From Lytechinus pictus (Eukaryota), in NCBI RefSeq assembly GCF_037042905.1, contig NC_087251.1, positions 30,382,001 through 30,446,000 on the forward strand: DNA of 64,000 bases, given 5' to 3'. A program made the translations under genes and the position numbers. Shown in pieces: positions 14,442 to 49,600 of this stretch; within the stretch, counting starts at the first letter, position 1; the number at the start of each line of letters is the position of its first letter. Under the pieces are notes generated by a model. It had not been told where the DNA came from, searched no databases, and saw only the letters and a list, made by a program, of their open reading frames with translations.

Positions 14442-14614
14442 ATAGTGGAGGGGTCCATACTGAGTAGCAGGAAATGTAGCTTTACAAAATCACTATTATT
14501 CTGGCAACCCTTCTAATGGTAGGCTTAGTGGAACTGAGAATCAGTCCAATCATGCTTGAAAGACATATGGGGATAAATTACCATAATATAACATTCATCC
14601 ATTTTTGCAATATA

Positions 14615-16378: not shown

Positions 16379-16799
16379 TAGTTTAGATTTTAGCTTTTAG
16401 GGGCCTTTCAAACTGCTGAAATTCAAGAAAGATTATTTTAGTTACCGCCCATGCATTGGTCACATTATCAGGCTGTAACTCAGCACCTTTTGGCCACTGG
16501 AGAGATGAAATATGGGATCTATATTGCTTCCTCCCCCACCCCGGAAAATAAACATATCATATAAAATATAAAACAATCCTCAGATCATTTTAAACCAAAA
16601 TCCTTATTACAACTCTCAGCCTAACCCTGCATGCAGGTCAAAATATTTATTGAACAAGGTGAAATTATTGCAGGAATACATGTCATGTCTCTTGAAAGTG
16701 TTTCATGAAAGTTTTGTTAGTGATTTTAACCTAATGTAAATCATTGCTAGTATCTGATAGGCTGAGAACAAACTGAAGTCAGTGAAAATCACTGACAAA

Positions 16800-19660: not shown

Positions 19661-19841
19661 TATGTATGAGTGCAGAGAAATGGATGCAATTGAATGCGCA
19701 CTATTTCCTTTGTCCATGTGTAGTTTTTACCACAGTCAACAAAGTCATACCAAACTTGGTGAAGGCAGATGAATGTAGCGAGAAAAAAGATAACTCTCTT
19801 TCTTTAACCATTATAAGCATGGTCTAAATGCACATGTTTAA

Positions 19842-20385
19842 AGGGATGTTCTGGGCTGAAAATATTTATATCTAAATAAATAGAGTAAAATTCACAAAGC
19901 AAAATGCTTAAAATTTCATCAAAATCGGATAACAAAAAACGAAGTTATTGAATTTTAAAGTTTATCAATATTTTGTGAAAACAGTTATATGCACATCATC
20001 ATGAATATTCATTAGGTGGGCTGATGATGTCATATCGGAAATCATAATTGTTTCATTTTTCATGCATATATAAATGTCTCCATTATGATGAAATAAGTTG
20101 CTGCAATAAATAATTAATTGTTTTTGTTCTTGGTAGAAAAATTTTGAAAAAACCTAATTTCATATAATAAAATGCATAAGAACAAATGGGGATATAATAT
20201 ATCAGACCACCTTATGAATATTCATGAAGACATGCCTAGAACTGTTTCACTGGAATAATGCAAATCTTTAAAATTCAATAACTTCAATATTTGTTATCCG
20301 ATTTTGATCAAATTTTCAGCATTTTTGCTCTGTGAATTTTACTCTATCTATTGAGATATAAATATCTCCAGCCTAGACCACCCCT
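19842..20385. mobile_element. Kolobok-like palindromic MITE
   Basis: TTAA|AGGG...CCCT|TTAA with ~200-bp inverted arms. Confidence 0.85.
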
Positions 20386-21255
20386 TTAATTAAAAAAAGT
20401 TTTTATAAAAAATTGAAGTAAACACGTACCTCATACTGATCCGTGCAGCAGCCTGGGCTTCTTTCAAGGTCATACTCATCAATGGTTAATCTTGGATAGC
20501 TTCTCAGATCATCCTGGACCCTTACTTGTCCATCCTATAATTGAAAATTGAAACATAGCTTTTAGGTTAAAATCATGCATTCACAGCAAGGCTAAAGGCA
20601 AAGATGCATGTTTTTGTCACAAATGGTGAACATTTTACTTTCTGATCTCTAATAAGCCCCTACATATTTCATGGTTCATTCACATAAATAATCTCAATAT
20701 TGCAAATACTGCAATGAATATCTCTGCGTAAAGTAGACTAAATTCTAGTATAAAAATATCACAATTTATTTAGTGAGACATCATCAACTGTTAAGTACTA
20801 ATGTATGATCATTCATTCACATTTTTTTTCCAGATTCGAATATCTTTTTTCTCCATTCAAATTCATTTTAATTTAATTTCAATGATCTATTTGTGTATTA
20901 GTTAATTTCATTTATTAATCTAATTCATTTCACTTTAATTTAAGATATAAAATTATGAGATTTCTTGCTTGAACATTATGATTATCATATTATTGCATTT
21001 GCTATATTATTGCATTTGCTCCGACATATTTGTTTAAACTACTCAGATTCTTCACTTCCCTTCCTAGATGGCGCTATACCTCCAGCCATCCAGCGGATTA
21101 ATTACGAGTTGCAAAGAGAGTTAAGAGACAGAAAGTTAAGACACCTGCAGTCCCGCATCCATTTATTATAGAACAATATAATTTAAGTAAGAAAATTGAG
21201 AGATCATGCTCAGTAAACTTATTTCCATAGTAGACCTACATGTACTACTCGGTTG

Positions 21256-22619: not shown

Positions 22620-24012
22620 ATGTTTCAAGTTTCAAGTCTCATTTATTTCATTTATTATATCAAGATAAAAATACATAAAAAATAGACAATGTAGATACAA
22701 TGAACATCAAATTTAAAGAAAGTGAGGAAGGTAATGGCCAAAAAGGAAGAAACCTTGTGTGAGGCCAACCCATAACAAAAATTGTACTAAAAGAAATATT
22801 AAAACATCATATAATCACAAATTCAATGAGAAAAAAACAAAAAACATAACAAACACCTAACTAAACCTTAACTGAATGAGAATGGGGGGGGGGGGGGGGA
22901 AACCAAAAAATAAATCTAAGACTTAGACAATAAAAATGTTTTGTATCTCCTTTTAAAAACAGATACTGAAGGGCTTGATTGAATGTCAGAAGGGATGGAG
23001 TTCCAAATAACTGGTCCTTGATAAAATATACTGTTTCTGAAGATGGAAGTACTGCACTGTGGAATATGGATATCTTGGGCATTTATTGTTGAATAAGTAT
23101 GTATAGATGTGTTTAATAAAAATTAATTCTTAAGGGAATTAAGCAAGAGATCCTTTTTATAGAAAAACATGAAAAGTGCAATATTCATTCTATTCAAATC
23201 CATTATATTCAAAATTTTCAAAGATGTAAACAATGGTCCAGATTAAATGGGAGAGATAAGAAGAGTGAGTTATAATTCTCATTGCTTTTTTTCTGTAAAA
23301 GAAATATTCTGTTAATATGTGTTTGGAAGGCATTACCCCAGGCTATGGAGCGTTGTGGCCCAGTGGATTAGTCTTTGGACTTTGAAACAGAGGGTCGTGG
23401 GTTCGAATCCCAGCCATGGCGTAATTTCCTTCAGCAAGAAACTGATCCACAGTGTGCTGCACTCAACCCAGGTGAGGTAAATGGGTACCGATAGGAAGTT
23501 TTTTCCTTAAAAAGCTGTGTGCGCTATGAACGCCTAGCTTAGCCAGGTAATATAGGAGCGCCTTGAGCACCTAACAAGGTGGATATGTGCGCAATATAAA
23601 TACCCTATATTATTATTATATTGCAATAATTCAAATATGGTAAAATCAAGGTATTATACAATAAAAGAAGAATATTCTTCGGCAATGTGTGGAGTTTATA
23701 CATAACACCAACGTTTTTTGGCAACTTTGTTGCAGATGACACCAGCATGTTCATTCCAAGTTAACTTATTATCAACATTAACACCTAGAAAGGTAGTAAA
23801 TGTTACTTCATTTACTGGCATCTCATTTAAACAAACCTCAAATTTGAATTGTGATCTATTTTTATTTGTAAAAAACAAAAAATTTGATTTCTTAACATTT
23901 AAGGTTAATTTATTAACAGTAAGCCAGTTTGATACATATTTCAGTTCCGTATTGAAAATATTTTGTAAAGTTTGAACATTTCTATGGGACATGAACAAGC
24001 TGGTGTCATCTG
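22620..24012 (-). mobile_element. 5'-truncated CR1/L2-group LINE remnant (RT C-terminal half plus 3' UTR)
   Basis: DDTSLF...NKLTLNVKKS...FLGVNVDNKLTWNEH...LYNTLILPYLNYCNI|AWGN...LQKKAMRII, frameshifted and split by the SINE; AATAAA and (CTTGAAA)n tail at about 22620-22650. Confidence 0.9.
23347..23618 (+). mobile_element. tRNA-derived SINE inserted into a LINE remnant
   Basis: A box TGGCCCAGTGG, B box GGTTCGAATCC, conserved CCCAGGTG...AAATGGGTACC body, (TAT)n tail. Confidence 0.9.
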
Positions 24013-24088
24013 TCTCTGTTACCTGCATCTGTTACCTGAAATTTCCTTCATCCACATACCATGAATATTTGATAACTATTTATGCCAC

Positions 24089-24831: not shown

Positions 24832-25088
24832 CCTCCAGGGATCACCCTCTTCACAAAGATCCTGAGGTCATTCTCAACGACATCCTTGATGTTACCTGCC
24901 AGGGATCCTCCTCCTTACAAAGATCCCAAAGTAATTATCTGCAACATCCTCACTGTTTCCTGCCAGTGATCACCCTCTTCACAAAGATCTTGAGGTCATT
25001 CTCTGCAACATCTTCGCAGTTACCTGCCAGCGATCACCATCTTCACAAAGATCCTGAGGTCATTCTCTGCAACATCCTCATTGTTACC
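24832..25088. repeat. 64-bp minisatellite, four copies
   Basis: CCTGCCAG.GATCACC.TCTTCACAAAGATCCTGAGGTCATTCTCTGCAACATCCTCA.TGTTA at about 24832, 24895, 24959 and 25023. Confidence 0.95.
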
Positions 25089-26374: not shown

Positions 26375-27095
26375 TTATAATACGCCCGCCTGTAATACAG
26401 AAAATTGAGTTATTGGCCAAGCAAGAAAAGTGGAAGGTGGTGACTTCACCTTTGACTGTCTGACTTCAAAATCAATAGAATTCCTGGGATCTATGCTAGT
26501 ATCATACACATCAAATTATATGAGCCTATAGTTTAAGTTAAACTAAAGTTATTGCGTTAACAAGGACTTCAGAAGGATAAGATGAAAACATGTCACTGTA
26601 GTCTTGACCTTTGACCTTCAGAATCAATATAGGCTTTCTGGGATCCATGCTAGTATCATACACACCAAATTATATGAGCTTAGGTTAAGTCAAACTAAAG
26701 TTATCGCGTTTACAAAGACTTCAGAAGGGTAAAATGAAAACATGTCAGTGTGACCTTGACCTCAAAATCAATAGGCTTCCTGGGATCCATGCAAGTTTCA
26801 TACACACCAAATTATACAAGCCTAGGTTAAGTTAAAATGAAGTTATCGCATTTACAAGGACTGCAGAAGGGTAATATGAAAACATGTCACTGTGACCTTG
26901 ACCTTAGGACCTCAAAATAAAGAGGCTTCTTGGGATCCATGCTAGTATCATACACACCAAATTATATGAGCCTAGGCTAGGTTAAACTGAAGTTATCGCG
27001 TTCACAAGGAAAAGTTAATGGACGGACAGACAGATGGACGGACGGACACCGAGCGTGATACCATAATACCTTCCATCTAGACGGGCATATAAAAA
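26375..27095 (+). mobile_element. HINE/pearl-like element of a different family, with ~145-155-bp cores
   Basis: 5' ATACGCCCGCCT matches 3' AGACGGGCATAT; about four cores with TGACCTTGACCT and GGGATCCATGC; (GGAC/ACAG) microsatellite before the 3' hairpin and A-run. Confidence 0.75.
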
Positions 27096-30116: not shown

Positions 30117-31240
30117 ACAAGTGGAACGCCTCTGGCAGTCTCGCCTGCATCACGCGATTTAATATCAGCAGTGCTAACTTTGAAAACTACTATAAAATAA
30201 TCATTCACAAAAACACCATTCATATAATGACATAATACCACGTTCATTGACCATAAATGACATTTGAACGGTGACTTCAGACTTGTCAACTACACCCATG
30301 TCCACATTTCATTCACTCTATCCATAAACTTTCAAAGTTATGATGGCAATTCAACAATTACCCCAACATGGCCTAAGTTTATTGACCTTAACTGACCTTT
30401 GACCTTGGTTTTGTGACCTGAAACTCACAGGGGATGTTCAGTGATACTTGATTACTCTTATATCCCAAGTTTTATGAACTAGATCTATAAACTTTCAGAG
30501 TTAGGATGGTAATTCAACAAATAACCCAAACATGGCCAAAGTTCATTGACCTTTAATGACCTTTGACCATGGTCATGTGACCTGAAACTCGTACAGGATG
30601 TTCAGTGATACTTGATTACTCTTATGTCCAAGTTTCATGAACTAGATCCATAAATTTTCAAAGTTATGATGGTAATTCAACAAATACCCCCAACTTGGCC
30701 AAAGTTCATTGACCCTAAATGACCTTTGACCTTGGTCATGTGACCTGAAACTCAGGCAGGATGTTCACTCATACTTGATTAACCTTATGTCCAAGTTTCA
30801 TGAACTAGATCCATAAATTTTCAAAGTTATGATAGTAATTCAACAAATATCCCCAACTTGACCAAAGTTCATTGACCCTAAATGACCTTTGACCTTGGTC
30901 ACGTGACCTGAAACTAAAGCAGGATGTTTACTAATACTTGATAAACCTTATGCCCAAGTTTCAAGAAATAGGTCCATATACTTTCTAAGTTATGATGTCA
31001 TTTCAAAAACTTAACCTTCGGTTAAGATTTTGAAAATAATTTTCCCAACATGGTCTAAGTTCATTGACCCTAAATGACCTTTGACCTTGGTCATGTGACC
31101 TGAAATTCAGGCAGGATGTTCAGTAATACTTGATTAACCTTATGTCCAAGTTTCATATTTGATGTTGATGCCGCCGCCGCCGCCGCCGTCAGAAAAGCGG
31201 CGCCTATAGTCTCGCTCTGCTATGCAGGCGAGACAAAAAA
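30117..31240 (+). mobile_element. Helentron-associated (HINE/DINE-1/Tsp-like) non-autonomous element with 163-bp tandem cores
   Basis: 5' sub-TIR GTCTCGCCTGCAT; cores with TGACCTTTGACCTT (periods 164, 163, 163, 192); (GCC)n; 3' hairpin GTCTCGC...ATGCAGGCGAGAC plus A-run; no TSD. Confidence 0.85.
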
Positions 31241-31703
31241 CATCATCACGGAGTCCTCAGCTTCAAGGCTACCCCAGTTCCAGATTAATATGTTCAGAGC
31301 TCCGCCGCGGCTAATTTGGAGTGCTATTGCGACCCCATTCTACCCCATTTTGGAGAGTATATGTCTGCCTAGTACTACACGGACGAGTCCAGGGGCCTGT
31401 TGCATGACGAGATGAGCGATACGTAGGAACGTCCTAGGACCATTCTTCCAAGATAGGAAGATTGGCGACAAATCAGCGCTTTCCGTTTCACGAAGTCAAT
31501 TTTGTCTTTCAAGTCCGCGACATCGATTGATATCGATAGTATTGGAAAAATATTTAGTCTTCATCGTCACCTGAACCTTTCATTTCGGAATGACGACTTT
31601 TGATAAAATCATATATTTCAATAAAAGGGGATCAAACAATGTTTTATTTATTACTGATTGTAGAATTGATGTATGGAGCTTACTTTATGAGGTAAAAAGA
31701 GAA

Positions 31704-33062
31704 ACAAGTGGAACGCCTCTGGCAGTCTCGCCTGCATTACGCAATTTAATATAGCAGCAATGCTAACTTTGAAAACTACTATAAAATAATCATTCACAAA
31801 AACATCATTCATATAATGACATAATACCACGTTCATTGACCATAAATGACATTTGAACGGAGACTTAAGACTGTCAAATACACCCATGTCCACATTTCAT
31901 TCACTCTATCCATAAACTTTCAAAGTTATGATGGCACTTCAACAATTACCCCAACATGGCCTAAGTTTATTGACCTTAACTGACCTTCAACTTGGTTTTG
32001 TGACCTGAAACTCACAGGGGATGTTCAGTGATGCTTGATTACTCTTATATCCCAAGTTTTATGAACTAGATCCATAAACTTCAGAGTTAGGATGGTAATT
32101 CAACAAATACCCCCAACACGGCCAAAGTTCATTGACCTTTAATGACCTTTGACCATGGTCATGTGACCTGAAACTCGTACAGGATGTTCAGTGATACTTG
32201 ATTACTCTTATGTCCAAGTTTTATGAACTAGATCCATAAACTTTCAAAGTTATGATAGTAATTCAACAAATACCCCCAACTTGACCAAAGTTCATTGACC
32301 CTAAATGACCTTTGACCTTGATCACGTGACCTGAAACTCGAGCAGGATGTTCACTTATACTTGATTAACCTTATGTTCAAGTTTCATGAACTAGGTCCAT
32401 ATACTTTCTAAGTTATGATGTCATTTCAAAAACTTAACCTTCGGTTAAGATTTTGAAAATAATTTTCCCAACATGGTCTAAGTTCATTGACCTTTAATGA
32501 CCTTTGACCTTGGTCATGTGACCTGAAACTCGTACAGGATGTTCAGTGATACTTGATTACTCTTATGTCCAAGTTTCATGAACTAGATCCATAAATTTTC
32601 AAAGTTATGATGGTAATTCAACAAATACCCCCAACTTGGCCAAAGTTCATTGACCCTAAATGACCTTTGACCTTGGTCACGTGACCTGAAACTCGAGCAG
32701 GATGTTCACTTATACTTGATTAACCTTATGCCCAAGTTTCATGAACTAGGTCCATATACTTTCTAAGTTATGATGTCATTTCAAAAACTTAACCTTCGGT
32801 TAAGATTTTGAAAATAATTTTCCCAACATGGTCTAAGTTCATTGACCCTAAATGACCTTTGACCTTGGTCATGTGACCTGAAACTCAGGCAGGATGTTCA
32901 GTAATACTTGATTAATGTCCAAGTTTCATGAACTAGGTCCATATACTTTCTAAGTTATGATGTCGTTTCAAAAACTTAACCTTAGGTTAAGATTTGATGT
33001 TGACGCCGCCGCCGGAAAAGCGGCGCCTATAGTCTCGCTCTGCTATGCAGGCGAGACAAAAA
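31704..33062 (+). mobile_element. Same HINE/Tsp-like family, second copy
   Basis: Same termini and cores as 30117-31240; contains a 355-bp (163+192) higher-order duplication. Confidence 0.85.
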
Positions 33063-34544
33063 CTTTTAAGATTCACAAACATAACTGGATGAAATCAAAA
33101 TGTTCATTATTTCCCTTATTTAGAACACGGTGTCCTTTTAGAGACACCTTTCATTGATATTTCAACGAAAGAGACCCTTGTCCGACATAAATATTTATTT
33201 AACCAAGTAATTTCGACATTTAATTCGTTCAATATTCTGTATTTTTATAGAATACATACAGTATATATAATGATGATTTTGCAAATTATTCGTTAATATG
33301 TTATCTGTTGAGGTAAAAATAGGGTTTGAATGGAGTAAACAAAATCAACAGTGTCTGATTGTATGAGACTAAAAAGGAAAATATGAGAGGCTGCCTGTGA
33401 AAAATCTAATTTATTTATTTTATTTGTCAGATATAACGCAAGAAATACAAATGTGAGTGTTCAGAGTATAAACATACCTCAGTTGCATGATGAGTAACCG
33501 AAGACAAGGAAAATATGAAAATTGCTGCAAACATGTCCAAGTGGATAAAAGTAGTGATTTGCAATAATAATTAAAACACTAAGGTGTGCAATCCGCAATG
33601 GAAAAAATACTATTTACAGAAATAATGCTAAAAATTACAATGATCATAAACGTCGGTCATCTTTAAAGTTGATCATTAATTTATGGAAGCTTATATAAAT
33701 GGCATTTATAAATTTACCTCCCATCTTTAAAATAAATTTTACGACATATACTAATACTTGTGAAAGTTTCATGCTTTTGTCAGAATTTGCACAATTGTTG
33801 TGATTTTTGGAGCTTATACGCTCTACTATATAAGAATATAGGGTTTAAGAATATAAAAAATATATATGTTCAACATTTCAAAGTTGAGGAGTAGAGACTA
33901 CATTATTGCTCTAACATTACATAGGGGCCGAAATAAGGGGCCTACCCTACGATTTAAAATGCGCCTCTTCGTATGAACTTTCCACAATCTTTTCTTTAAT
34001 GAACTTCATCTTCATTTGTAATGATTGTGATGGATTCGTAAGCTATAGGCCTAATCTGTATCTTAAATTCAATTAGCTATTTTGTTACTGCAGATTTTTT
34101 GTTTTGTTTCACTGTTTTACATCTCAAGTTAGCCCAAATCCGACAATTAATTTTCATTGATCAAAATTAATCTCAGCAAAAAAAAAAATAATTATAATAA
34201 AAAATAAAAATAAACTAGATTTTAATTCGTCATGCGGACGAATTAGGTGGTCTGTCCTTATTCTCGCCATCATGATCACTATTACCATGTTCAAGCAGAT
34301 CAATATGATCTTCATGATGACAACGGAATGTTCATTATGGATGGAATACTTGTGAAAGACGGGAGATGATAAAGCACTGTGAAAAGGGTCTCTTTGATAT
34401 ATGAAATTACATGTGATATGAAAAAAGTAATTATAATCTGTTTAATCTTGCTAAATTTTAACTTTCTTACCTTTTAATTATCATAAAGGATCATGTACGA
34501 GGTGGTAAAAAGAAAAAAAAAATGAAAAAAAAAATCATCTTGTT

Positions 34545-34617
34545 CACCCCCAGGACTCGAACCTGCGCCCCCGAGAACTCAAGTCAGGTGCGTTATCCAT
34601 TGAGCCACGATATTCCC
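34545..34617 (-). pseudogene. tRNA-like Pol III cassette inside the larger HINE (second copy at ~37126-37198)
   Basis: TGGCTCAATGG (A box) and GGTTCGAGTCC (B box) followed by oligo-T; the acceptor stem does not pair. Confidence 0.6.
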
Positions 34618-34796
34618 CATAGAGATTACACGTTCCCATAGAGATTACACGTAAGCAAATTTGAGAATTACAAATCCAATTTTGCAAGCGAAAAACGGGC
34701 ATGATCCTGGCATCTGATCGAAAAATGGAGGGCATATTTCCGAAAGCTTAGAATCTCAGCTACATCATACCAAAAGCTCAGGGATAACTAACAAGA

Positions 34797-35749
34797 ACAA
34801 GTGGAATGCCTCTGGCCGTCTCACCTGCATCACGCGATTCAATATAGCAGCAGTGCTGATTTTGAAAACTACTATAACTCGCACAAGATGTTCAGTGATA
34901 CTTGGTTACTCTTATTTCCACGTTTTATGAACTAGACCAATACACTTATAGAGATATGATGGCAATTCAACAAATACCCCCAACGTGGCCAAAGTTCTTT
35001 GACCTTACATGACCTTTGACCTTGATCATGTGACCTGAAACTCGCACAGGATGTTCAGTGATACTTGATTACTATTATGTCCAAGTTTTATGAACTAGAC
35101 CAACACACTTTCAAATTTATGGCTGTAATTCAACAAATACCCCAATTTGGCCAAAGTTCATTGACCCTAAATGACCTTTGACCTTGATCATGTGACCTGA
35201 AACTTGCACAGGATGTTCAGTAATACTTGATTACTATTATGTCCAAGTTTCATGAATCAGATCCATAAACTTTCAAAGTTATGATGGTAATTCAACAGAT
35301 ACCCCCAATTCGGCCAAAGTTCATTGACCCTAAATGACCTTTGACCTTGGTCATGTGATGTGAAACTCATGCAGGATGTTCAGTGATACTTGATTAACCT
35401 TATGTATAAGTTTCATGAACTAGGTCCATATATTTTCTAAGTTATGATGACATTTCAAAAACTTAACCTTAGGTTAAGATTTTGATGTTGATTCCCCCAA
35501 CATGGTCTAAGTTCATTGACCCTAAATGACCTTTGACCTTGGTCATGTGACATGAAACTCAGGCAGGATGTTCAGTAATACTTGATTAACCTTATGGCCA
35601 AGTTTCATGAACTAGGTCCATATACTTTCTAAGTTATGCTGTCATTTCAAAAACTTAACCTCAGGTTAAGATTTGGTGTTGACGCCGCCGTCGCCGTCGC
35701 CGTCGGAAAAGCGGCGCCTATAGTCTCACTCTGCTATGCAGGTGAGACA
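34797..35749 (+). mobile_element. Same HINE/Tsp-like family (variant subfamily), nested in a larger HINE
   Basis: Same architecture. The empty site AACAAGAAAAAATGGAG is visible in the paralogous copy at 37371-37387. Confidence 0.88.
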
Positions 35750-36792
35750 AAAAATGGAGATATAGCTCACGAAATAGAGGAATGTAGAATCTAGTTTTGA
35801 GAAAAAGTCATGTCCCATAGAGATTACACGTAAAATGAGGAAAAATGACATGCCTCTTTTCATCGCAATTTTACACCATGATGCGTTTTTCAAAATGAAA
35901 ATTCATGCTAACTGACGAGAAAGAGTACATTCTAAACTACAACATATCGAAATCTGGGCGAAAAATGATCAATATTCACGGAGTTATGATCAAATTTGCA
36001 TAAATTTGATGACGTCATTTTTGAAAAAATGAAATTTTCAGTTTAGGCGCAATTTTGATGACGTCATGATCAAATTGAGGGACAATGGTGACATGAAATC
36101 AAATCTACAACTCATACTCTATCGATATATGAAAAAAAAAATTGGGGTCAACGGACTATTTAAAGAGCTACAGTGAATTTTCAATAGACATGTTTTTGCC
36201 CATATATGGCCTGTAGTGAGAGCTCGCGCGCACACGTGCTGCAAAGTTTAACGGGTGATAATTTCGTTATTACTTGTCGTAGAAGGTTGATCAAGGTATC
36301 AAATTGTTCAGAATTATATTATCGGTGCATTGATATAAAAAAATTTGGCGATTCTATGTTGAAAGATGCAATTACGCGCAAAAACGCGCGCGCATGTGCG
36401 TGCGCGCGTTTTTTTGCAAAATGCTTAAAATGGCCTGAAACGTATGGAAAATTAATTTGGAACGAATTTGAGCATTTTAAAATTTTAATGCGCGCGTACG
36501 TGCGCGTCGAGGTGCGCGCGCGGAATTTGATGAAATTTTTAGTTGACCGTTGACCTGAAATTGATGTATACCAAATATAGTTGATTTTTGATGACTCGTT
36601 ATCGAGATATGATAATGACCTGATTTTTACAAAATGGCGCCTGGATGACGTCACGATGACCTGATGACCTTGAAAAAGTTGATTTAACTTGAAATCATAA
36701 GGCTTGATGACTGACAGAAATTTGAAGGAAATTGACCATGTCGATTTCGAGTGAACGTGTGTGCAAAAAAGTGTACGGAAGAAATAAAAATA

Positions 36793-38495
36793 AACTAGAT
36801 TTTAATTCGTCATGCGGACGAATTAGGTGGTCTGTCCTTATTCTCGCCATCATGATCACTATTACCATGTTCAAGCAGATCAATATGATCTTCATGATGA
36901 CAACGGAATGTTCATTATGGATGGAATACTTGTGAAAGACGGGAGATGATAAAGCACTGTGAAAAGGGTCTCTTTGATATATGAAAATACATGTGATATG
37001 AAAAAAGTTATTATAATCTGTTTAATCTTGCTAAATTTTAACTTTAATACCTTTTAATTATCATAAAGGATCATGTACGAGGTGGTAAAAAGAAAAAAAA
37101 AAATGAAAAAAAAAATCATCTTGTTCACCCCCAGGACTCGAACCTGCGCCCCCGAGAACTCAAGTCAAGTGCGTTATCCATTGAGCCACGATATTCCCCA
37201 TAGAGATTACACATTCCCATAGAGATTACACGTAAGCAAATTTGAGAATTACAAATCCAATTTTGCAAGCGAAAAACGGGCATGATCCTGACATCTGATC
37301 GAAAAATGGAGGGCACACTTCCGAAAGCTTAGAATCTCAGCTACATCATACCAAAAGCTCAGGGATAACTAACAAGAAAAAATGGAGATATAGCTCACGA
37401 AATAGAGGAATGTAGAATCTAGTTTTGAGAAAAAGTCATGTCCCATAGAGATTACACGTAAAATGAGGAAAAATGACATGCCTCTTTTCATCGCAATTTT
37501 ACACCATGATGCATTTTTCAAAATGAAAATTCATGTAACTGACGAGAAAGAGTACATTCTAAACTACAACATATCGAAATTTGGGCGACAAATGATCAAT
37601 ATTAACGGAGTTATGATCAAATTTGCATAAATTTGATGACGTCATTTTTGAAAAAATGAAATTTTCAGTTTAGGCGCAATTTTGATGACGTCATGATCAA
37701 ATTGAGGGACAATGGTGACATGAAATCAAATTTACAACTCATACTCTATCGATATATGAAAAAAAATTGGGGGTCAACGCACTATTTAAGGAGCTACAGT
37801 GAATTTTTAATAGGCATGTTTTTGCCCATATATGGCCTATAGTAAGAGCTCGCGCGCACACGTGCTGCAAACTTTAACGGGTGTTAATTTCGTTATTAAT
37901 GGTCGTAGGTTGATCAAGGTATCAAATTGCTCAGAATTATATTATCAATGCAACGATATAAAAAAAACGGCGTTTCTGCGTTGCGTTGAAGGCGTTACGC
38001 GCGGAAACGCGCGCGCATACCTGTGCGTGCGCAAATTTTTGAAATGCTTAAAATGACCTGAAACGTACTTTACTTTGGTCAAAAAGTGATTTTGAGCATT
38101 TTAAAAATTTGACGAGCGCGTACGCGCGCGTCTTGACCTCCAGGTGACCTTTGATGACATGACCTGTTGACCCTTGACCTGAAGTTGATGTGATGTTAAT
38201 TTGATTGATTTTTGATAATTGATAATGGAGATATGATCGACAATGTGATTTTACAAAATGGCGCCTGGATGACGTCACGATGACCTGATGACCTTGAAAA
38301 AGTTGATTTAACTTGAAATCATAGGGCTTGATAACTGACAGAAATTTGAAGGAAATTGACCTTGTCGATTTCGAGTGAACGTGTGTACAAAAAAGTGTAC
38401 GGAAGAAATAAAAATAAATAAAGAATAAATAAAGAATAAAGAAAGAAAATTCTGGCGAAATCAATAGGTGATCTGTCGTTGACAGACCACCTAAT
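36793..38495 (+). mobile_element. Larger HINE-like element, complete inner copy (~1.7 kb)
   Basis: Near-identical to 34213-36792 once the nested insertion is removed; has its own 3' hairpin at about 38463-38494. Confidence 0.8.
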
Positions 38496-39965
38496 AAAGA
38501 ATAAATAAAGAAAGAAAATTCTAGCGAAATCAAGAGGTGATCTGTCTTTGACAGACCACCTAATAAATGATTTACCATGTTTAACATTTTAGTTTTGAAT
38601 CGTGTTTTTTTTTTGCTGAACATTATAAACATGTTTTTACCTTGCATAATTTCTTTTAAAGAAATTTGTTTTCATGTTGTTTAATTAAAATGAGAAAGCA
38701 TGAGGGGTCAGAGAGATAGTGCCGCCCATTGCGATTTTTCAAAAAAAATTTAATGGAAATGGTGTGGGGATAGGACCGAGGGAGAATAAAAGAAAACATA
38801 TTAATAAAAATATTTGGGCCTACATTACCCCCGGACATAATAGTACCCCGGAGAAGTTAAATTGACATCCGTTTTTGGTCGTCTTGCCGTGCAAAAAGAC
38901 GACCTGAAATTGATGACAACTAGCCCCCATATAAAAAATAACTTGGCACTGTGACCATCCCAGATAATGCATCAGTGCACTCACACTATTGCGAGGTTAG
39001 TATATGCTATACGAACCTCGCACAACCTACGTGTTTTTGTAGTGGATTTTAGAGTTGTCGTTAACATCGCTTCATAACGTGAATGATGTTAGCCGAAACC
39101 CATTCCGCTACTCACCAGGGCTTTTCCTGGTAGAAAGCGTTCCATTTTCAATTTTTAACATATTTTTTTAATTTAAAAAGGACACAAAAAAGAGCAAAAT
39201 CGCTTATCTCCGCCTGGAAAGTGGCTTTGCACGTCTCTTCCACGGAAATAAAAGGAAGGTCGTTGGTGGCGCTAATACAGTTCACAACCTTAATTCAGCT
39301 TGGTGGTATTTTTAAAACTAGATTCATATTCATTGTATGCGCAATTCCAATAATTGTTTGATAAAATAGAGACCCCAATAAATGCAATAACTTAAAAAAC
39401 ATACTTTTTTATTATTTTCTGACGATAATACTTTTTGGAAAATATTCAAAACGATGACAAATTAAACAAAAAATAAAGAAAATTCTATGTACCTTGAACG
39501 AAGCCCCGCAAGTGCTACCGTTTGTTTGTCAATTAACGTTCCACCAAATTCTTTACAGTAAAAAGATTGAACACTTTGCCGACTTCGCGTAACGCTTTGC
39601 ATCGATTTACGTGTAAGATAATTTTTGTGTCTAGTCTTTCAATTGTAGTGTCTTTGATATGAAGATAAATCGCGCGTCCTTTTTCGCTCATTAGACAAAA
39701 AATTTGAGAGCTAGAAAGGTGGCTTTCGTATTTTGTCAACGAGAAGAAAAATCAATGCTTAAATGACACATTTTGACGCATTCGTATTAATTTTTCATAA
39801 AGTAATGTTATTTGTTGAATGCGCCGTGCCTTCAATTATTCTGTAGTCGGCGGCAGAGATGTAGCCGTGGGTTGCATCAGTGTGCAACCCCCAAAAATGT
39901 TTAAAGGTGATATGTCAGTGTGGCTTGCTATAAACACATTTTCTCTCAATGCCGACGGTGGCAGG

Positions 39966-41795
39966 CGTAGCCAGGCGGCTTCTTGAGAGTAAAAATCATT
40001 TACTAACGTAGGCTTACTCTAAACGAAGCCAGGGAGTCCTTCCTATTCATCTGCGTGTACCGCAAAAAACCCTGAAACTTTCGCCCCCGAGATTTCTACT
40101 TTCCTTCTAAAAGATCTAGCTCTAAATCATGTACATGGGATAAAACTTCAAAAAACGTGTTCACCCAAGCAAAACATCGCCGGCGAACTCGATAAGTCAC
40201 GTGACCGCCGCCATTTTGCTAGGTCAATTGTTCGAGAACGCGCCGTAGAAGGCAATTGAAAGTATGTGCAAGATGCAATATGTTTTCTAGTTCAGTGGTT
40301 GAAGCGGGACATTTTAGCACTTTTTAATCTAGCACCGCTCATAATTTTGCCGCCCACTATACGCGTCACGTAACTAGGTTGCATTAACAAAGGATCAATG
40401 ATGGCGATGTCAACAAGTGTAAGTAAACTCTCTTCTACTTTTATTACTGCATGTCATTTTGGCGTCATTTTGTAACCATAACTATCCATTTTTTGCCAAA
40501 CGTTGCCAACCAATATTTTTACCCATGTACAGAAGTGTTAACCTCAGATTCTAAACATAACTAGCAGTTTGGCGCATTTTTATAGTTGCCTTTTTCTTTG
40601 GTGCGTGGGAGCCTATATGTATGATGGGGTGTCCAAACTTCGCGCACTTTTCAAAAATATTCATCAGGCTTCAATTTTTTCACAAAATATTCATAATTTA
40701 TACAAAACCAATTCAAGAAATAGTTACCACATTGACGGCAAGATCGTAAACTATAAAATCATGAACGAAAATGTAAAGTAGGTCAAGGGGATTTGCCGGT
40801 ATCGCGATCTCAAAATTCTATTCCGATCGGCGAATGCGCGTTGTGCTGGAAAACCGTTCAGAAAAAGTGTGACCTAACTTCGCGGACCAAAGTTTTTGTG
40901 GACATTTATACAAAACTCAAGCTCAAAAAGTGAAATATTTATATCAGATTGATGGCAAAATGCTATAGAATCGGTTAGTACCACATTTAACTCACATTTT
41001 TGATGATTTCTGCTTGCAAAATGGTGATATCGTGATGCTTGTTGAGAATATCAGATTTCTTCAAAACGGGCGCTAACGGTGACAAATTTGCCGATCTTTT
41101 GCCAATATTTTCATGAATACTGAACTCATCCTAAAGAAACTTACACCAAAGGGTAATTTTAGGTCGCTTTTCACGTTGATGATGTCAGATTTTAAGGATA
41201 TTGGCTAGTTTTTTAGATAATGACCGTCCGCGAAATTTGGACTCACTGCCATACAAACGCCAGGCGTTCGGGGAGTGACCATACGTAGAGTATATTACTT
41301 TTACTCCCCAGACGCCTCCAGGCTAGGTACACGCAGATGAATAGGAAGGACTCCCTGGCTTCGTTTAGAGTAAGCCTACGTTAGTAATGATTTTTACTCT
41401 CATTCTCAAGAAGCCGCCTGGGAGACTCTCATCAACGCAAGCGTCCGTATCGTGGGTGAAGAACAATAGAAAACAAGATGGCGGCGTAAACATCGGGCAA
41501 GTCTCTTCCGTCTATTCATGATATTTTCCTCATTTTTTTTGATGAATTCTTGTCTAGAAATAAAATCCATGGCGTAGAAATGTCGGAAATGAAGTTGTAA
41601 TTATCCCATGTACATGATTTAGGGCTAGATCTTTTAGAAAGAAAGTAGAAATCTCGGGGGCGAAAGTTTCAGGTTTTTTGGTGGTACACGCAAAAGTATA
41701 GGAAGGAAGACCTGGCTTCGTATGAGAGTAACCTTACGTTAGGAAATGATTTTTACTCTCTAGACTAGTACTAGGCCTAGTAGAAGCCTCCTGGC
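39966..41795. mobile_element. Inverted-repeat element whose right terminus is interrupted by the 41796-46845 insertion
   Basis: 39966-40150 is the reverse complement of about 41590-41795, which resumes as CTCCTGGCTACG at 46846-46857. A second partial inverted copy lies at 41326-41421. Confidence 0.7.
40196..40218. promoter_or_regulatory. USF/CLEAR-type E-box directly adjacent to a YY1 motif
   Basis: GTCACGTGAC followed by GCCGCCATTTTG in CpG-enriched sequence. A second YY1-type motif, AAGATGGCGGC, is at about 41476. Confidence 0.45.
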
Positions 41796-42039
41796 GGCTT
41801 AACTGCAGAATACCCCGACACTGCTCACTACCCAATCGTTGGTCAGCCAACACAACGATGTCAAGACCTATAGCTATATACTAATTCAATGGTATATAGC
41901 CTAGATATATCCATACTATTATATACGTACATGCATTACTGGTACTACTACTACTACTATACTACGTACGTACGTACGTATGACGGTACGTACGAGCAAT
42001 GCATCCAGGCCATACGTAATGACCTTTGCCCTTTGACTA

Positions 42040-42452
42040 CTACTAGAGCTATAATTAAACATCGTTGGGTGCGCTGCTAGCCAACGACCCACGTTGTGAC
42101 GGTACGGACGGTGCAATATAATATTCAAAACATCGTTGGCTAACCAACGACCCACGATGTGAAACTGTTATATCATAAAATAAGATTAATACACTCTTTT
42201 AAATTACCTACTAGAGCTATATACATCGTTGGGTGCGCCGCTAGCCAACGACCAACGATGTGACGGTGCCATGTAACATTTAAAACATCGTTGGCTAACC
42301 AACGACCCACGATGTGAAGGTGCAATAGTACAAGATTAATACACTCTTTTAAATTACCTACTACTACTAGCTATTGCTATACATCGTTGGGTGCGCCGCT
42401 AGCCAACGACCAACGATGTGACCGTGCAATGCAACATTCAAAACATCGTTGG
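42040..42452. repeat. Left subterminal ~160-bp repeats containing ACATCGTTGG...CCAACGA palindromes
   Basis: Three copies of acatcgttgggtgcgc(c)gctagccaacgacc..., at about 42060, 42222 and 42381. Confidence 0.9.
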
Positions 42453-42659
42453 CAAGCGTTTCAAAGTATGGTTTCACAAAACAGTTTAATATATGCATAT
42501 CCTGGTTAGTGAGGTGATCGATGTCATTCACTCTCTATTTCTTTTGTATTTTTTATACATGAAATATTTTCATTTTTTCTTCATTAAAATATGAAATAAA
42601 GTTTTAATTCCCATTGAAGGAATTCAATGGGAATTGAATTCAATGGGAATTGAATTCAA

Positions 42660-42671
42660 TTAGGGTTAGGG

Positions 42672-42712
<41 letters not shown>

Positions 42713-42720
42713 GGTTAGGG

Positions 42721-42817
<97 letters not shown>

Positions 42818-42837
42818 GGTTAGGGTTAGGGTTAGGG

Positions 42838-42897
<60 letters not shown>

Positions 42898-42950
42898 GGT
42901 TAGGGTTAGGGTTAGGGTTAGGGTTAGGGTTAGGGTTAGGGTTAGGGTTA
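42660..42950 (+). repeat. Interstitial telomeric repeat (TTAGGG)n
   Basis: 291 bp made of 41 TTAGGG, 6 TTTAGGG and a final TTA. Confidence 0.99.
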
Positions 42951-44180
42951 TATTCACATCATTGGCATCGCCGGCAATGTTGGCCTCTACAACAGGCATA
43001 TTCACATCGTTGGCATCGCCGGCAATGTTGGCCTATGTAAGATACATTCACATCGTTGGCACTGTTGGCATCTACTACAGGCACCAACACATCGTTGGCA
43101 TCGCGGGCGCTGTTGGTATATACATACTAAACATACATTCACATCGTTGGCATCGCCGGCAAAGTTGGCCTATACTTACTAAAGATACATTCACATCGTT
43201 GGCATCGCCGGCAATGTTGGCCTCTACTACAGGCATATTCACATCGTTGGCATCGCCGGCAATGTTGGCCTCTACTACAGGCATATTCACATCGTTGGCA
43301 TCGCCGGCAATGTTGGCCTATGTAAGATGCATTCACATCGTTGGCACTGTTGGCATCTACTACAGGCACCAACACATCGTTGGCATCGCGGGCGCTGTTG
43401 GTATATACATACTAAACATACGTTCACATCGTTGGCATCGCCGGCAAAGTTGGCCTATACTTACTAAAGATACATTCACATCGTTGGCATCGATGGCAAG
43501 GTTGGCCTGTACTACAGACACCAACACATCGTTGGCATCCTGGCCGGCGCTGTTGGCCTATACGTACTAAAGATACATTTACATTGTTGGCATCGTTGGC
43601 ACTGTTGGCATCTACTACAGGCACCAACACATCGTTGGCATCGCGGACGCTGTTGGCCTATACATACAAAAGATACATTCACATCGTTGGCATCGCGGGC
43701 AAGGTTGGCCTATACTACAGACACCAACACATCGTTGGCATCCTGGCCGGCGCTGTTGGCCTATACGTACTAAAGATACATTTACATTGTTGGCATCGTT
43801 GGCACTGTTGGCATCTACTACAGGCACCAACACATCGTTGGCATCGCGGGCGCTGTTGGCCTATACCTACTAAAGATACATTCACATCGTTGGCATCGAG
43901 GGCAATGTTAGCCTGTACTCTACAGTACAGACACCAACACATCGTTGGCATCGCGGGCAATGTTGGTCTACATAGGAAACTACAGATATGATCGCATCGT
44001 TGGCATCGCGGGCACTGTTGGCATGTACTACAGACACCAACACATCGTTGCCATGGCGGGCAATGTTGGTTTACATAGGCAACTACAGATATGATCGCAT
44101 CGTTGGCATCGAGGGCAATGTTGGCCTGTACTACAGACACCAACACATCGTTGGCATCGCGGGCAATGTTGGTCTACACC
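42951..44180 (+). repeat. Complex minisatellite, ~45-55 bp monomers with core ACATCGTTGGCATCGCSGGCAATGTTGGCCT
   Basis: Directly visible tandem monomers with larger duplicated blocks; starts immediately after the telomeric tract. Confidence 0.95.
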
Positions 44181-46261
44181 ACTCGTCATCCCCGACCATT
44201 TGCCAAACAGCAAAAGGTAGGGGATGGGACTAGAGGTATGTGAGGCGTACTCATAGACAAAATTTGTGATAAAAAATGTAAAAGTAAGAGAGTTTGACTT
44301 ACCAGTCTTTCCCCCCGAACCAAACGTTGATCTTCCTTCCGTTGTTGCTGGAATTTATCTTGGACTCAACGATATCTTGTCAATTATTCGAGGACTCTTC
44401 GGTAAATCGTCAGAATGTATGATGAAATTTGTCATGATCCTCAGCAGCGCATAGACTTCTACGTAGAGGATGTAACGCGCCCTCTTGTGCTCAATTAAAG
44501 AAAGCTCACGGAAGCGACCACACCACTGTCCTCTACAAAGCTGTATAAAAATCATAGAGATATACATCTCTATGATAAAAATGCTTCTCACCACAGATAC
44601 CTGTTTCCGGTGATGCTTCTATTTCGGAAATCCAAGATCCAGCGATAGTAGTCTCTTTCTCCCCTGACACACAATATTTTATTTTTATTATTTTATACAT
44701 CAGAATAATTTTAGCGCCATCAGCTTAGTTTATTCTATAATGAACTGTATCTTGTCGTATGCTGAAAGGAAATATGATGCCTTTTTTTTTGGGGGGGGGG
44801 GGTTATTGCTTCTTTTCTCGATCCCCGATGCCTCTCTTTTATTGAGTACTATCATTGTAAGGGTTAATTATTAATATTATTATTTTGGTTTTCTATTATT
44901 TTTCATATTATTATGGAATATTCATCATCATATCACTTTTGTAAGCCAACATTTTGTACCATCCTGAAATTAATATGGGTCAAGGCTGAAATGTGAAAAG
45001 AATGGAAGGGGCAAGAAACTCAAGACAAAGTGATAAAACAGAACATAATTACGTTCCAATTCTTTTTAATGAGTTTCTTTTATTTATCCAGGATGGGGAG
45101 CACATCAGGCTCGTGCCCACCCCCTCGAAAGCCATAGAACACATTTATTTTGCATCCATTTTGTTTGATAATTTGTACTGTTAATTTCATTTGATTGTAA
45201 TCCTTTATGTTTGGATTTGAAATCAATTAAATTAACTTGAAACTTTCCCGCCCTCCCCTTGAAAATTGTGATCTACCCCTAAATAGGCCTTTGTGGTAAG
45301 TGATTTTTTATTTTATTTATTTCTTAATGAAAATCCTTTAGGTTAGGATTTTAAATCAATGAAAACAAACTTGAAACTTCATACTGTATAGCGAGGAGCT
45401 GTTATCATAATAAATAAATAACTAAATCAAATAAATCAAAATCAAATCATAATTGTGAAATTATTCGTTACATAAATCTCCTTCACGGGGGGGGGGGGGA
45501 GCTTGTGATTTTTTTCTGTAAAAGAAACCACCCCTCCCCCTTTGGAAAATCCTGGATTCTCCCCTGATTAGACCCACAGTAAAGTTTGTTATTCTGAATT
45601 TCTGTTACATAATAATTTGGAAATTAATGCCTAACTTTGTGAAAAGTATTTCTATCGTCAGGTTCATTAATTAGAAAAGAATAAGGGGCTTTTTCATCAA
45701 GAGTCCCATAACAGAAAATTAACAAAATCAAAACAACTGAATTTCTCCTTAATTTTTTTTTTTTTCATACAAAAATGTCTTATTTCATTCCACTTTCACA
45801 ACTACTAGTATCACTTTTGACTTTGTATAAACATGAAACAAAATTGCAAATTTGTCTTGATTGAGGCTATCAAGACTTCCTTACCAGAATTCATTACAAG
45901 CAAAGTTTCGTCGAAACATCAATGGTCAGTGGTCCAAACGGGTTGATGAGCCTCTATGGTTTCGTGAGTTCTTTTTTCTTTTTCGATTTGTCACTGTCGA
46001 ACACAATAGACGTAATGGAGGCAGTTGGATGAGGTTCACGTTGAGAAATCGGTGAGTTTTTATTCATTTTTTATATCATATTTATTAATTTAAAGTCATA
46101 TCTGTCAAAATAACAGTTTACATCAACGGATCAGTTCAAGTATGAACTGATTCGCGATGCTTTGGGCAACAGATGGGGGGAAAATGACCAATATATATTT
46201 TAACAATAGAGAGGTATACAGCCGAGAACGAGGTTATATTATAACCTCGTTCGTAGGATGA

Positions 46262-46670
46262 GTGGTCTACACATACTACGGAAATATACACATCGTTGGC
46301 ATCGCGGACACTGTTGGTCTACATACTACAGAACACAGATATAGATCGTTGGCATCGAGGGCAGTGTTGGCCTGTACCGACTACAGACACCAACACACCG
46401 CTACCATCGCGGACTGTGTTGGCCTACACGTACTACGAAAATATACACATCGTTGGCATCGCGGGCAATGTCGGCCTACATACTACAGATGCACACAGAT
46501 ATATATATAGATCGTTGGCATCGCGGGCAGTGTTGGCCTGTACTACGGACACCAACGCACCGCTAGCATCGCGGACTGTGTTGGCCTACACGTACTACGA
46601 AAATATACACATCGTTGGCATCGCGGACACTGTTGGTCTACATACTAATCGCGCGCGCTCGCATCGTTAG
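46262..46670 (+). repeat. Second ACATCGTTGGCATCG minisatellite block near the right TIR
   Basis: Same core and orientation as 42951-44180. Confidence 0.9.
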
Positions 46671-49600
46671 CGTTACAGTGCAGTCTGAACACTTAGAATC
46701 TATTCAAAAAATACTTAATGTAAGTTGTAAATCATTCAATTATTTATTATAGCTGATTTTCTGATTTGATAGCTTAAGTACATCGTTGTGCGTTGGCTCT
46801 CCAACGATAAGGTAACGCAGTGTCCGGGTATTCTGCAGTTGTTCCCTCCTGGCTACGGAGGACCACTCATTCAATGAACAAGGTTAGGACATGTCTGGAG
46901 GTGTCTTTCGCTTTCCAAGGACTATTCTTCGTATCGCCCAAATCGGCCTTGTGAAACAGTTGAGCGATATCTCGTTCTTACGTCATGTACGTATGGTTCT
47001 ACGAAAGACCCTTTCAAAACTGGGCTGCGGCCCGCGAAGCGGGCCGGAGCTCCCTGCCTGGGTTACGCAGCGGCCTGCTGCGCCCGCCCGCCAGCTGCGG
47101 CGGCGCGGCAGCCCCAGATCGAATCCACACACACTTCCAAAACAAAATTACAAGAAAAAGAAAAGAACAAAGTGGCATGCCAACAAAGTATGAGAACGTA
47201 CATTATCGCAATTCAATCATAAGCAATTAAAGGGTACAAAATTTATTTAAACTAGGTACCTGGTACACTCACCTCTACTAATAAGATTATCAACATTTTG
47301 AATCTGCCGGCGAAGAAACTAGCTGCGATGCGGCGACAGTGAGGTCACATGACGTATGTGATATGATATGGCACGCCATTTGTCCCGGCAAAACTAGCAC
47401 TTAATTTGTGAAAATTTCAGTACAAATATGTCAGATTTTAAGATGTCTGGAGGGTAAATCCTTCCTTTCGCTGAAAACTGAATTTTTTTTAAATTTATCG
47501 CGCCCTTTAGCTCCCCTTATCATAGTAAAGTTCTTCTTCTCGAGGGTACCCCGTTCACCTATGAATAAGTGACCTGTATTTGACTTGAATGTCCTTATTT
47601 ACTTCTGATAAATGCCCCCTATCTTTTCTTGTTAGTGTAAAACTACCAGTATTTTAAATGTAAGCCAAGGTAATTGCAAATAGCATCCTTTTCTTCATTC
47701 TGCAGGGGCAGCAGAACTGGAGGAGGTAGGGGCACTTATTAATTCCCCCAATAATTTTCATATGATTCTTTAATGACATGTGCCTAGTGTGAGTGTGAGT
47801 GTGAGGTAACATTTTTTTTTTATCTGTGCATTTTCATTCCTGAAGTTGATTCTTTTTTATTTATTAAGTATTTGTTATTGTGTTGTTGTTCTTTGCGCCT
47901 TAAGAGGTGGGTATAGGTACGACATAATTGGGAGAATTTTATTCAACATTTTATGCCTAAAAGGGGCATTAATCCTCATTAATCCTTACAGTGCACTCGG
48001 GTCGGGAGGCCCTGTGTTTATTATGTTCTCTTCAGGCGATATAAGGTGACTTTACAAAAGTAAGGGAATTTTCCGACGGTTACTTTCTCTTCAACAAACA
48101 CTTCATTTGAAAGTGAATAATATTCTATATCCTTTTAAAAATCAAAAAAAAATCAGAGTGAAAAAAAAGTTGTAATTCAGAATAGCCCACATAGCAGGTT
48201 TACAACTTAAGTGTGGGGGAAGTTCTATGCCATCACCTTGCCCCTCACCCACAGCAACACTCACCCTTGTGAAACGCAGCAATGAACAATAGAAGAAAGT
48301 GAAAATGAGATTGTTTACCATGCAAAGGTACATTATGTTTCACGGGGGCATATGGGACATACTCATCGAAGGACTCGAGGCTACCACCTTTACATTAAAT
48401 ATACTTAATAGAAAGGTTAATTGTGCCCCTGAGGGGCGAACATTTCTCATTTTTTCAGTTACCATTTTTCGACAAGAAAAGTGCTTTCATGCATGGAGGG
48501 TTTTTTCTTGTCTTTAAAAATTGATTATTTCCTAACTTAAAGGGGCACATGGAACCATGGCCGTACACATAGGGAAAGGAACAGTTGCCCACCCCCGTCA
48601 TTTTGAAACCTACATTTCGTAATGAATATTTTCATAAAATTATCAAAAAGTGTGCACGAACTTCACTTTATAAAATGCAGACAAGCTTGATCGCTTCTCA
48701 CTTAATTGCCTTCGAGTTTCTTCTAACATCTATCCCCCCTCCGGAAAAAATATATTCGGACATTGGGATTAAGGGTTCTTCAAAAAAAGTATAATTGGGG
48801 AGGGGGCAAGTGTTGATCCCCTCCCCCACCCCTTTAAACCAGGAGAATTAAACCCCTTAAATAGTTTTGCAACCCATAAATTCTATTGGGGGCAAGGTCC
48901 CATCTTAAGTTTACAAACATAAAAATAAAAACTTATAGTAATGTTCATCAAAAATGGAAAAACTAAGATTTTCGATTGATAAACACAACTTATCAAATAA
49001 TTGTTCATCAAGTGGAAAACTCATTTTCTTGCTCGATAAATTAAGTTTTTCAAATTTACAATTGAAAAACTAAGTGAATCCTTCGAAAACCCTAGGTTTT
49101 CACCGATAAATTGAGTTTTTCGATGAAAAACTGAGTTTATCGCCAATACACTTAGTTTTTTCAAGCAATATACATGTAATGAAAAATTCTATTTTGGGGG
49201 TGATAAACAGTATTTTGTTAGAAAAACTTGGTTTACATTGAAAAATTGAGTTAATCGCCTTATGGGACAAATGGCGCGCCATACACGGATGCAGAGACCA
49301 AGTATAGTGTCGCCGAAACGTCCAATTGCGAAAAAAAAGAGATCAGAATGCGAAGGGCTAAGCATACCGGCTACACCCGTTACTAGTATATAGGGCAGAT
49401 TCAGCATGTCCAATAAAGTGTGTGTGTGTGTGGGGGGGGGTATTGGTGTGACTGCTTCAAAGCATTAATTGTTGGGGTAGCCCTTTAAGCTTTTATCAAA
49501 AAATGCAAAAATGTTCATGTTATTTAGAGATTCAGATTTATGAAGGGCCTACAAAAAATGATGCGATATTACTTAGGTGACCCTGAGCAGAACATTCTTG

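Follow-up and report, generated by a model that had tools for sequence, protein, structure and literature searches.

The telomeric tract in the window, the 64-kb stretch of Lytechinus pictus DNA that was analysed, lies in the centre of a TSD-bounded transposon. It forms part of a cassette (42454-42949) made up of a MITE-derived piece, two hairpins, a repeated 16-mer and the tract itself, and this cassette is placed between two differing arrays of the motif ACATCGTTGG. On balance, we favor with modest confidence a history in which one repair event, snap-back synthesis followed by telomere addition or capture, built the centre of the transposon, which was later copied to several sites. The anatomy of the element, its TSD, an inherited left junction and the absence of a second near-identical source in the sequencing runs were observed directly.

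The frame around the cassette is a non-coding element of 5049 bp (5.05 kb) at 41796-46844, with TIRs and a 9-bp TSD at its edges. The TSD copies (CCTCCTGGC, 41787-41795, and 46845-46853) are the longest match flanking both element ends, and the left copy sits within the terminal repeat of another (host) element. The left TIR (41796-41861, forward strand) was delimited by blastn and by contigs of two sequencing runs (X15 and X16) that begin exactly at 41796; the right TIR (46780-46844, reverse strand) was delimited by blastn and alignment. Inverted blastn matched 41801-41861 to 46840-46780 with 82.5% identity over 63 columns (E 6e-11), and the outermost 4-5 bases, the first G excepted, differ between the two ends. 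The chance that TSD and TIRs enclose the cassette in this way was ~4e-4 over 100 placements. Excising 41796-46844 rebuilds a sequence like a host element end, which resembles the reverse complement of 39964-39985. Because a 9-bp direct repeat is present and read-through of the empty site restores a host-like terminal repeat, the sequence indicates that the 5049-bp element is inserted at 41796-46844. The TSD ties both sides of the telomeric tract to one site, and it therefore argues against chromosome fusion or mis-join. None of five ORFs matched Pfam, including all four long ORFs inside the element.

The element is laid out as TIR, spacer, array A, cassette, array B and TIR, and measures ~2.96 kb without a 2.1-kb insertion. 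Array A, the left subterminal repeats (42036-42453, forward strand), has a 158-bp period and 2.6 copies. Each of its motifs is a small hairpin, ACATCGTTGG..CCAACGATGT, and the array is self-complementary. Repeat finding and a sequence check showed that it breaks off after 42452 or 42453, the C at 42453 fitting both sides; the preliminary description of this DNA had correctly placed the stop at about 42452. The same description had the array resuming at 42951, which did not hold: array B, the right subterminal repeats (42950-44179, forward strand), starts at 42950 with a 1-nt overlap (A) with the tract and is of a different type, with 39-55-bp units. The remainder of array B (46273-46662, forward strand) lies to the right of the 2.1-kb insertion. 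The two arrays have mainly the ACATCGTTGG motif in common; their alignment scores were +77 and -66, and they are not clearly inverted copies of each other. The 2.1-kb insertion (44180-46272) is flanked by a 10-bp direct repeat, TGGTCTACAC, at 44170-44179 and 46263-46272, and read-through across it restores a normal array B unit, which suggests that it is later than array B.

The locus as a whole contains three nested elements, namely the host element, the 5049-bp element and the 2.1-kb insertion. In the last, the inverted ends are short and imperfect, and a perfect 13-bp hairpin lies at 46226-46252, close to the right end. The host element spans 39964-41795 and 46845-46860, with inverted ends at 39981-40150 and 41590-41764 (88%) and a third copy of its end at 41326-41421; a TSD was sought for it and none was found. 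A few bases left of the 9-bp TSD, ~20 bp of short CTAG palindromes (41761-41783) interrupt the host terminal repeat. This patch is absent from the matching host repeat at 39964-40000 and has the look of a further fold-back insertion or of a footprint left by excision.

Mutator-like transposons encode a DDE transposase, which in Rehavkus has a PHD finger. Their TSDs are 8-11 bp long (9 bp in Rehavkus), and they have TIRs and subterminal repeats, as described in the available text of PMC6446971 and PMC12581902. Measured against that text, the element here resembles Rehavkus and other Mutator-like foldback elements in its 9-bp TSD, in a TIR within the 26-400 bp range and in subterminal tandem repeats behind both TIRs. 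Pack-MULEs carry foreign DNA, as this element does (PMC6431247, in part). Unlike Rehavkus, this copy of the element is without a transposase in a Pfam scan of its ORFs, its two arrays are unlike and show no clear inverted arrangement, and its cargo is a telomere tract. The carrier may thus be described as a non-autonomous element of Mutator/Rehavkus type, in the sense of likeness and not of membership, and we infer that the cassette occupies its central region.

The piece between array A and the first hairpin is ~165 bp long and AT-rich. We annotated 42454-42618 (forward strand) as an internal fragment of a high-copy MITE family, lacking a terminal repeat, on the basis of an alignment z of 5.0 and of contig depth. 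It had been likened to Kolobok-like MITEs at 19842 and ~21400. That particular likeness proved weak: among 15 repeat or AT-rich targets in the window, searched on both strands, a local aligner gave z above 4 for two, 5.0 for the MITE at 19838-20389 and 4.3 for ~21400, and the best blastn match to the MITE at 19842 had an E of 0.47. For 42440-42660, blastn detected no significant source in the window, where the best match outside the query itself had an E of 0.011; the 27-nt MITE core, with up to 3 mismatches allowed, occurs only here. Kolobok-like MITEs are recognised by a TTAA TSD and terminal repeats, and the fragment has neither a terminal repeat nor TTAA. The MITE at 19838-20389 is complete (552 bp), palindromic and the only one here with TTAA at both ends. 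The contigs place the piece in a related, very high-copy MITE family: summed contig depth was 938-178,559 at 42525-42557, within a depth peak at 42492-42590. Loose ends from paralogs were seen in the contigs, and one record continues behind 42603, resembles the first hairpin arm and then departs. From this one record, the first arm seems to derive from the MITE and only what follows it seems to be new; MITE homology probably extends into that arm.

The next part of the cassette consists of two overlapping hairpins and a repeated 16-mer. Hairpin 1 (42606-42635), a perfect 13-bp stem with the 4-nt loop GGAA, had been described before and was confirmed. The 16-mer GAATTCAATGGGAATT is repeated 2.6 times at 42620-42660 (forward strand) with 100% identity between copies, and it leads directly into the tract at 42660, again as described. 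Hairpin 2 (42632-42661; perfect 13-bp stem, loop GGGA) had been missed, as had the whole transposon frame; it closes with the TT that opens the first telomere unit. A stem of at least 13 bp was obtained in 0 of 1000 base shuffles of 42453-42661, and the fold had a z of -4.6 (0 of 200 shuffles). The window contains four perfect 13-bp stems, two of which are hairpins 1 and 2. By the shuffles, the hairpin is beyond chance. A single stretch of metagenomic sequence matched the hairpin; it looks like a bacterial terminator between two genes and was rejected as a chance match.

The bases at 42623-42661 can be read as three segments copied from the preceding 60 nt, the first inverted (13), the second direct (16) and the third inverted (10). 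This parse fits what snap-back and loop-out synthesis would leave behind, so the snap-back origin proposed in the preliminary description is supported: hairpins and stutter both parse as copies of immediately preceding sequence. In SD-MMEJ snap-back repair, short inverted and direct copies of the flank are inserted, as here (PMC5728401, available text), and insertions of the SD-MMEJ or polymerase theta type are primed by repeats of 2-4 nt less than 10 nt apart (PMC5728401 and PMC11292364, both in part). The cassette is unlike SD-MMEJ in that a long telomeric tract follows, which is not a product of that model.

The telomeric tract (42660-42949, forward strand; 290 bp, 47 units) comprises 41 TTAGGG, 6 TTTAGGG and a final TT, and is the only tandem TTAGGG within the window. 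It reads as G-strand away from the hairpin and has a 2-nt in-register seed (TT) supplied by hairpin 2. The seed and the orientation agree with the earlier proposal of telomerase extension from a seed, and capture of ready-made telomeric DNA would give the same picture. A 2-nt seed is a weak sign of telomerase. Telomerase would be the simplest source of the tract; copied or captured telomeric DNA or RNA would fit equally, and copying from either is an accepted alternative to telomerase for ITSs (PMC7215372, in part). All six variant units have the same one-base T gain, and they separate runs of 5, 7, 2, 5, 9, 2 and 11 plain TTAGGG units. The periodicity of this pattern gave P = 0.011 for period 3 and P = 0.072 for any period, both post hoc, a hint that the runs may reflect later internal duplication of the tract. 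It is the assembly and the TSD that give the length of the tract and connect it to array B; contigs of the sequencing runs reach only its first 26-30 nt.

Contigs from sequencing runs were aligned to 41700-42680 at a likeness of at least 82%. Four of the 20 runs listed (X15, X16, X1 and X2) were compared in this way; 13 small-share runs, X2 among them, carry no weight. X15, X16 and X1 come from two studies under two organism labels, and X2 is organism B. In three of the four runs (X15, X16 and X1), a single contig covers 42393-42680, from array A to the first TTAGGG units, with 0 differing letters; judged from its length it carries 26, 30 and 28 nt of TTAGGG, respectively, i.e., the first 4-5 units. 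The listed contigs of these runs amount to 780, 777 and 640 letters without substitution. In X2, cover was restricted to a low-complexity patch and the two high-copy repeats; this does not prove the element absent. No sequence other than the junction contig covered 42624-42680 at a likeness of at least 82% in X15, X16 or X1. Only one contig covers these positions, and therefore the hairpin and the 16-mer are not a diverged repeat family. No branch at 42453, as from a second source or a tract-free site, was found in the same three runs; the element is uncovered in X2.

All three runs with the element skip 105 bp of array A (42134-42238), joining 42133 to 42239. The skip removes one ACATCGTTGG motif and fuses two array A units with a 2-nt overlap. 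X15, X16 and X1 thus have the same cargo as the assembly and an array A that is 105 bp shorter, and none of them shows the allele of the assembly. Because the left junction is identical in three of the four runs, and these three differ from the assembly in their array allele, it is inherited, not an artefact, and older than the 105-bp deletion. An adapter or polishing error, which the preliminary description had allowed for, is ruled out for the left junction on the same three of four runs. That each sample has two array variants is suggested by a short loop-back contig at about half depth in X15, X16 and X1 (3.9 as listed for X1, an inferred ~10 for the other two). A further contig in X1 has 255 letters leading up to 42242 that are unlike the window, and bin arithmetic gives it no more than 30 letters in common with array A; it is probably another locus with an array A fragment. 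The sequence of 41796-42680 is identical under the two organism labels A and E (X1, X15 and X16). These labels may denote one species; otherwise, the identity would point to recent transfer between species.

The same runs bear on whether the element has moved. In both runs that cover the element end (X15 and X16), the contig starts at 41796, the first base of the element; X1 has no cover of 41796-41939 and is silent on this end. Among the records listed, depth was 0 at 41778 in X15, X16 and X1. For the bin 41766-41798, letter-depths of 229 and 216 were observed in X15 and X16, and 246 and 221 are accounted for without TSD or flank; bin arithmetic thus leaves nothing over for either (6.9 and 6.6 observed versus 25 and 15 expected). 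Word shares of 0.64, 0.63 and 0.47 in X15, X16 and X1 agree with the 0.58, 0.58 and 0.47 predicted without the flank. An identical flank would give a predicted share of 0.89, and a flank diverged by ~4% would, by our own estimate, give near 0.67. Coverage gaps alone prove nothing, since a filter drops records; overlaps of 30 letters do get aligned, and a junction contig with the flank of the window should therefore have shown. Against the lowest-depth long contigs of the same run, the junction contig was 3-5 times as deep in X15 and X16 and 1.3 times as deep in X1, ratios that are too weak to be used as copy number, which contig depth does not equal. From these contigs we consider the element with its cargo to be probably mobile, and the junction probably recurs at other sites.

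The junction need not have moved at all. The repair could have taken place in a resident copy of the element at this site, as in a short ITS at a single locus, with the samples representing other alleles. In keeping with this, each of the three runs has only one contig on 42624-42680, and the X1 junction contig has the same depth as its neighbours (ratios 1.03-1.13). Vertebrate ITSs with deletions, added sequence and inverted duplications are known (PMC7215372, in part), and 6 of 27 TERC-ITSs lie in transposons that did not spread them (PMC8537989, in part). However, contigs begin at the first base of the element in both runs that cover that base, the TSD and flank of the window are uncovered in all three runs among the records listed, and alleles that differ yet have 0 substitutions over 640-780 letters point to young, copied sequence. 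We thus regard a single resident locus as unlikely. The preliminary description had likewise assumed a break healed at this chromosomal site, and that assumption was not supported: both sides of the tract belong to one TSD-bounded element, and the junction was found in runs where the flank is uncovered. It had also named a dispersed repeat consensus as an objection to its reading, and this applies by half: the junction does recur identically, and probably at other sites, but no high-copy diverged family of it was seen at a likeness of at least 82%.

In the history that we favor, the cassette would fill the centre of a Mutator/Rehavkus-like DNA transposon of the non-autonomous kind. Aborted gap repair that leaves filler DNA gives rise to non-autonomous elements. 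The cassette may have arisen once, in a progenitor copy, when a central break or gap in the element underwent error-prone repair. The left end, stopped in array A, would have been joined to a piece of an old MITE; the free 3' end would then have folded back and copied itself two or three times over, which would account for both hairpins and for the 16-mer repeat between them. The resulting ..AATT end would have gained TTAGGG, either by telomerase from the 2-nt seed or by joining to telomeric DNA, and the far end of the tract would have been attached to array B, the two overlapping by 1 nt. The tract may have grown by internal duplication of ~100 bp. Finally, the element with its cargo would have been copied to more than one site, that of the window among them. 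The order of these events, the enzymes and the mobility are what we infer.

A different order, in which MITE piece, hairpins and tract formed a healed chromosome end elsewhere and ~500 bp of it moved into the element in one step, seems quite unlikely to us. The cassette is oriented as it would be at a chromosome end, the 290-bp tract exceeds the 6-205 bp of TERC-ITSs in the available text (PMC8537989) and holds variant repeats, and internalised ends with telomere tracts are known as MoTeR relics (PMC7367193, in part). Such a relic is compatible with later mobility. However, the contig is unbroken across 42453/42454 in all three runs, and thus no second locus in those samples shares 31 cassette letters with a different upstream flank. 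Attachment of the Terminon type, which by our own reading of part of the literature would place the hairpin distal to the G-strand tract, the opposite of what was observed, was rejected as a candidate.

It is very improbable that the tract forms a genuine chromosome end in some cells, as had been suggested earlier, through programmed breakage and healing in soma versus germline, with the assembly merging that end and an internal allele. Contigs do end inside the TTAGGG run, but they must end anyway once their words are pure TTAGGG. On its far side the tract is followed by array B, the right TIR and the matching TSD. By index distances, the assembled piece extends at least 18 Mb to either side of the locus, with other sites on it lying 26.5 Mb away on one side and 18.6 Mb away on the other. 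An assembly, adapter or polishing artefact is hardly credible: the six identical one-base T gains could be homopolymer error and the tract length comes from the assembly, but three runs with a differing array allele agree exactly on the left junction, on the hairpins and on the first 4-5 units, and the TSD binds the two sides to one site.

Comparison with known systems was based on literature seen partly as excerpts. The cassette behaves like a short ITS made at a repaired break, as judged by analogy: it is likewise a short, near-exact tract (47 units, 290 bp) at an internal site (PMC7215372, in part). At horse ITS loci, an in-register seed of at least 2 nt was present in 24 of 40, and ITS junctions show additions and inverted duplications, with inversions in 3 of 66 (same source, available text). 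In-register bases are present at the 5' junction here too (TT, 2 nt), a weak likeness. Unlike short ITSs at double-strand breaks, the tract here is the centre of a TSD-bounded transposon, seems to have been copied with the element, and has an invertebrate host. With TERC-ITSs (PMC8537989, in part), the cassette shares a foreign fragment upstream of the TTAGGG tract. It differs in that the upstream piece is MITE-derived and not telomerase RNA, and in that the tract is longer (290 bp versus 6-205 bp); TERC-ITSs, in the available text of that report, were not spread by transposons. An Rfam search of 39000-48000 found no telomerase RNA; its two matches, which lie outside the fragment and far below gathering scores, were due to chance. 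As compared via Rfam, the cassette is not a TERC-ITS, and the fragment matches a high-copy MITE family.

MoTeR relics of Magnaporthe are internal transposon fragments attached to telomere repeats, as here, and new fungal telomeres had seeds of 1-4 nt in 19 of 24 cases (PMC7367193, available text). MoTeRs are telomere-targeting retroelements whose relics were internalised by end joining, according to the same text, whereas here an element of the cut-and-paste type encloses the tract. Neither a DNA transposon carrying a telomeric tract nor a sea-urchin ITS like the cassette was described in the titles and opening lines of abstracts that we searched, which included few subscription papers and no supplements. 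Within that literature, no DNA transposon was seen whose cargo combines a repair scar and a telomere tract.

The window contains other repeated structures. A foldback element at 14613-16380 has arms of ~520 bp (81%) and internal repeated blocks. Tandem arrays lie at 30298-35682 (163/192-bp units), 26444-27010 (142-bp) and 24835-25088 (64-bp), and recent local duplications link 34199-34805 with 36779-37386 (98%) and 35749-36794 with 37377-38418 (88%). A frame of 111 aa at 23696-24031 (reverse strand) resembles, to our reading, a non-LTR reverse transcriptase in its C-terminal part.

A short telomere tract inside a chromosome is usually taken for the one-off scar of a local break. If the cassette moves with its element, some such tracts would be passengers that are uninformative on local breakage, and the copies would form a natural, polymorphic series of identical telomere seeds, on which it could be tested whether internal tracts cause fragility or chromosome fission in an invertebrate germline. 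The junction records snap-back synthesis and telomere addition in direct succession, the seed being made by fold-back. Were the cassette the scar of a single locus, it would be a neat example of an ordinary kind. A further suggestion, which we put forward only tentatively, is that a young, still mobile element of the cut-and-paste type took up a telomerase-made tract while its own centre was being repaired and scatters 290-bp telomere seeds across the interiors of chromosomes, at sites that differ between individuals. In that case, excision or breakage at a copy could leave an already capped chromosome end, and the snap-back hairpin that supplies the seed may be the general route to new telomeres in this animal.
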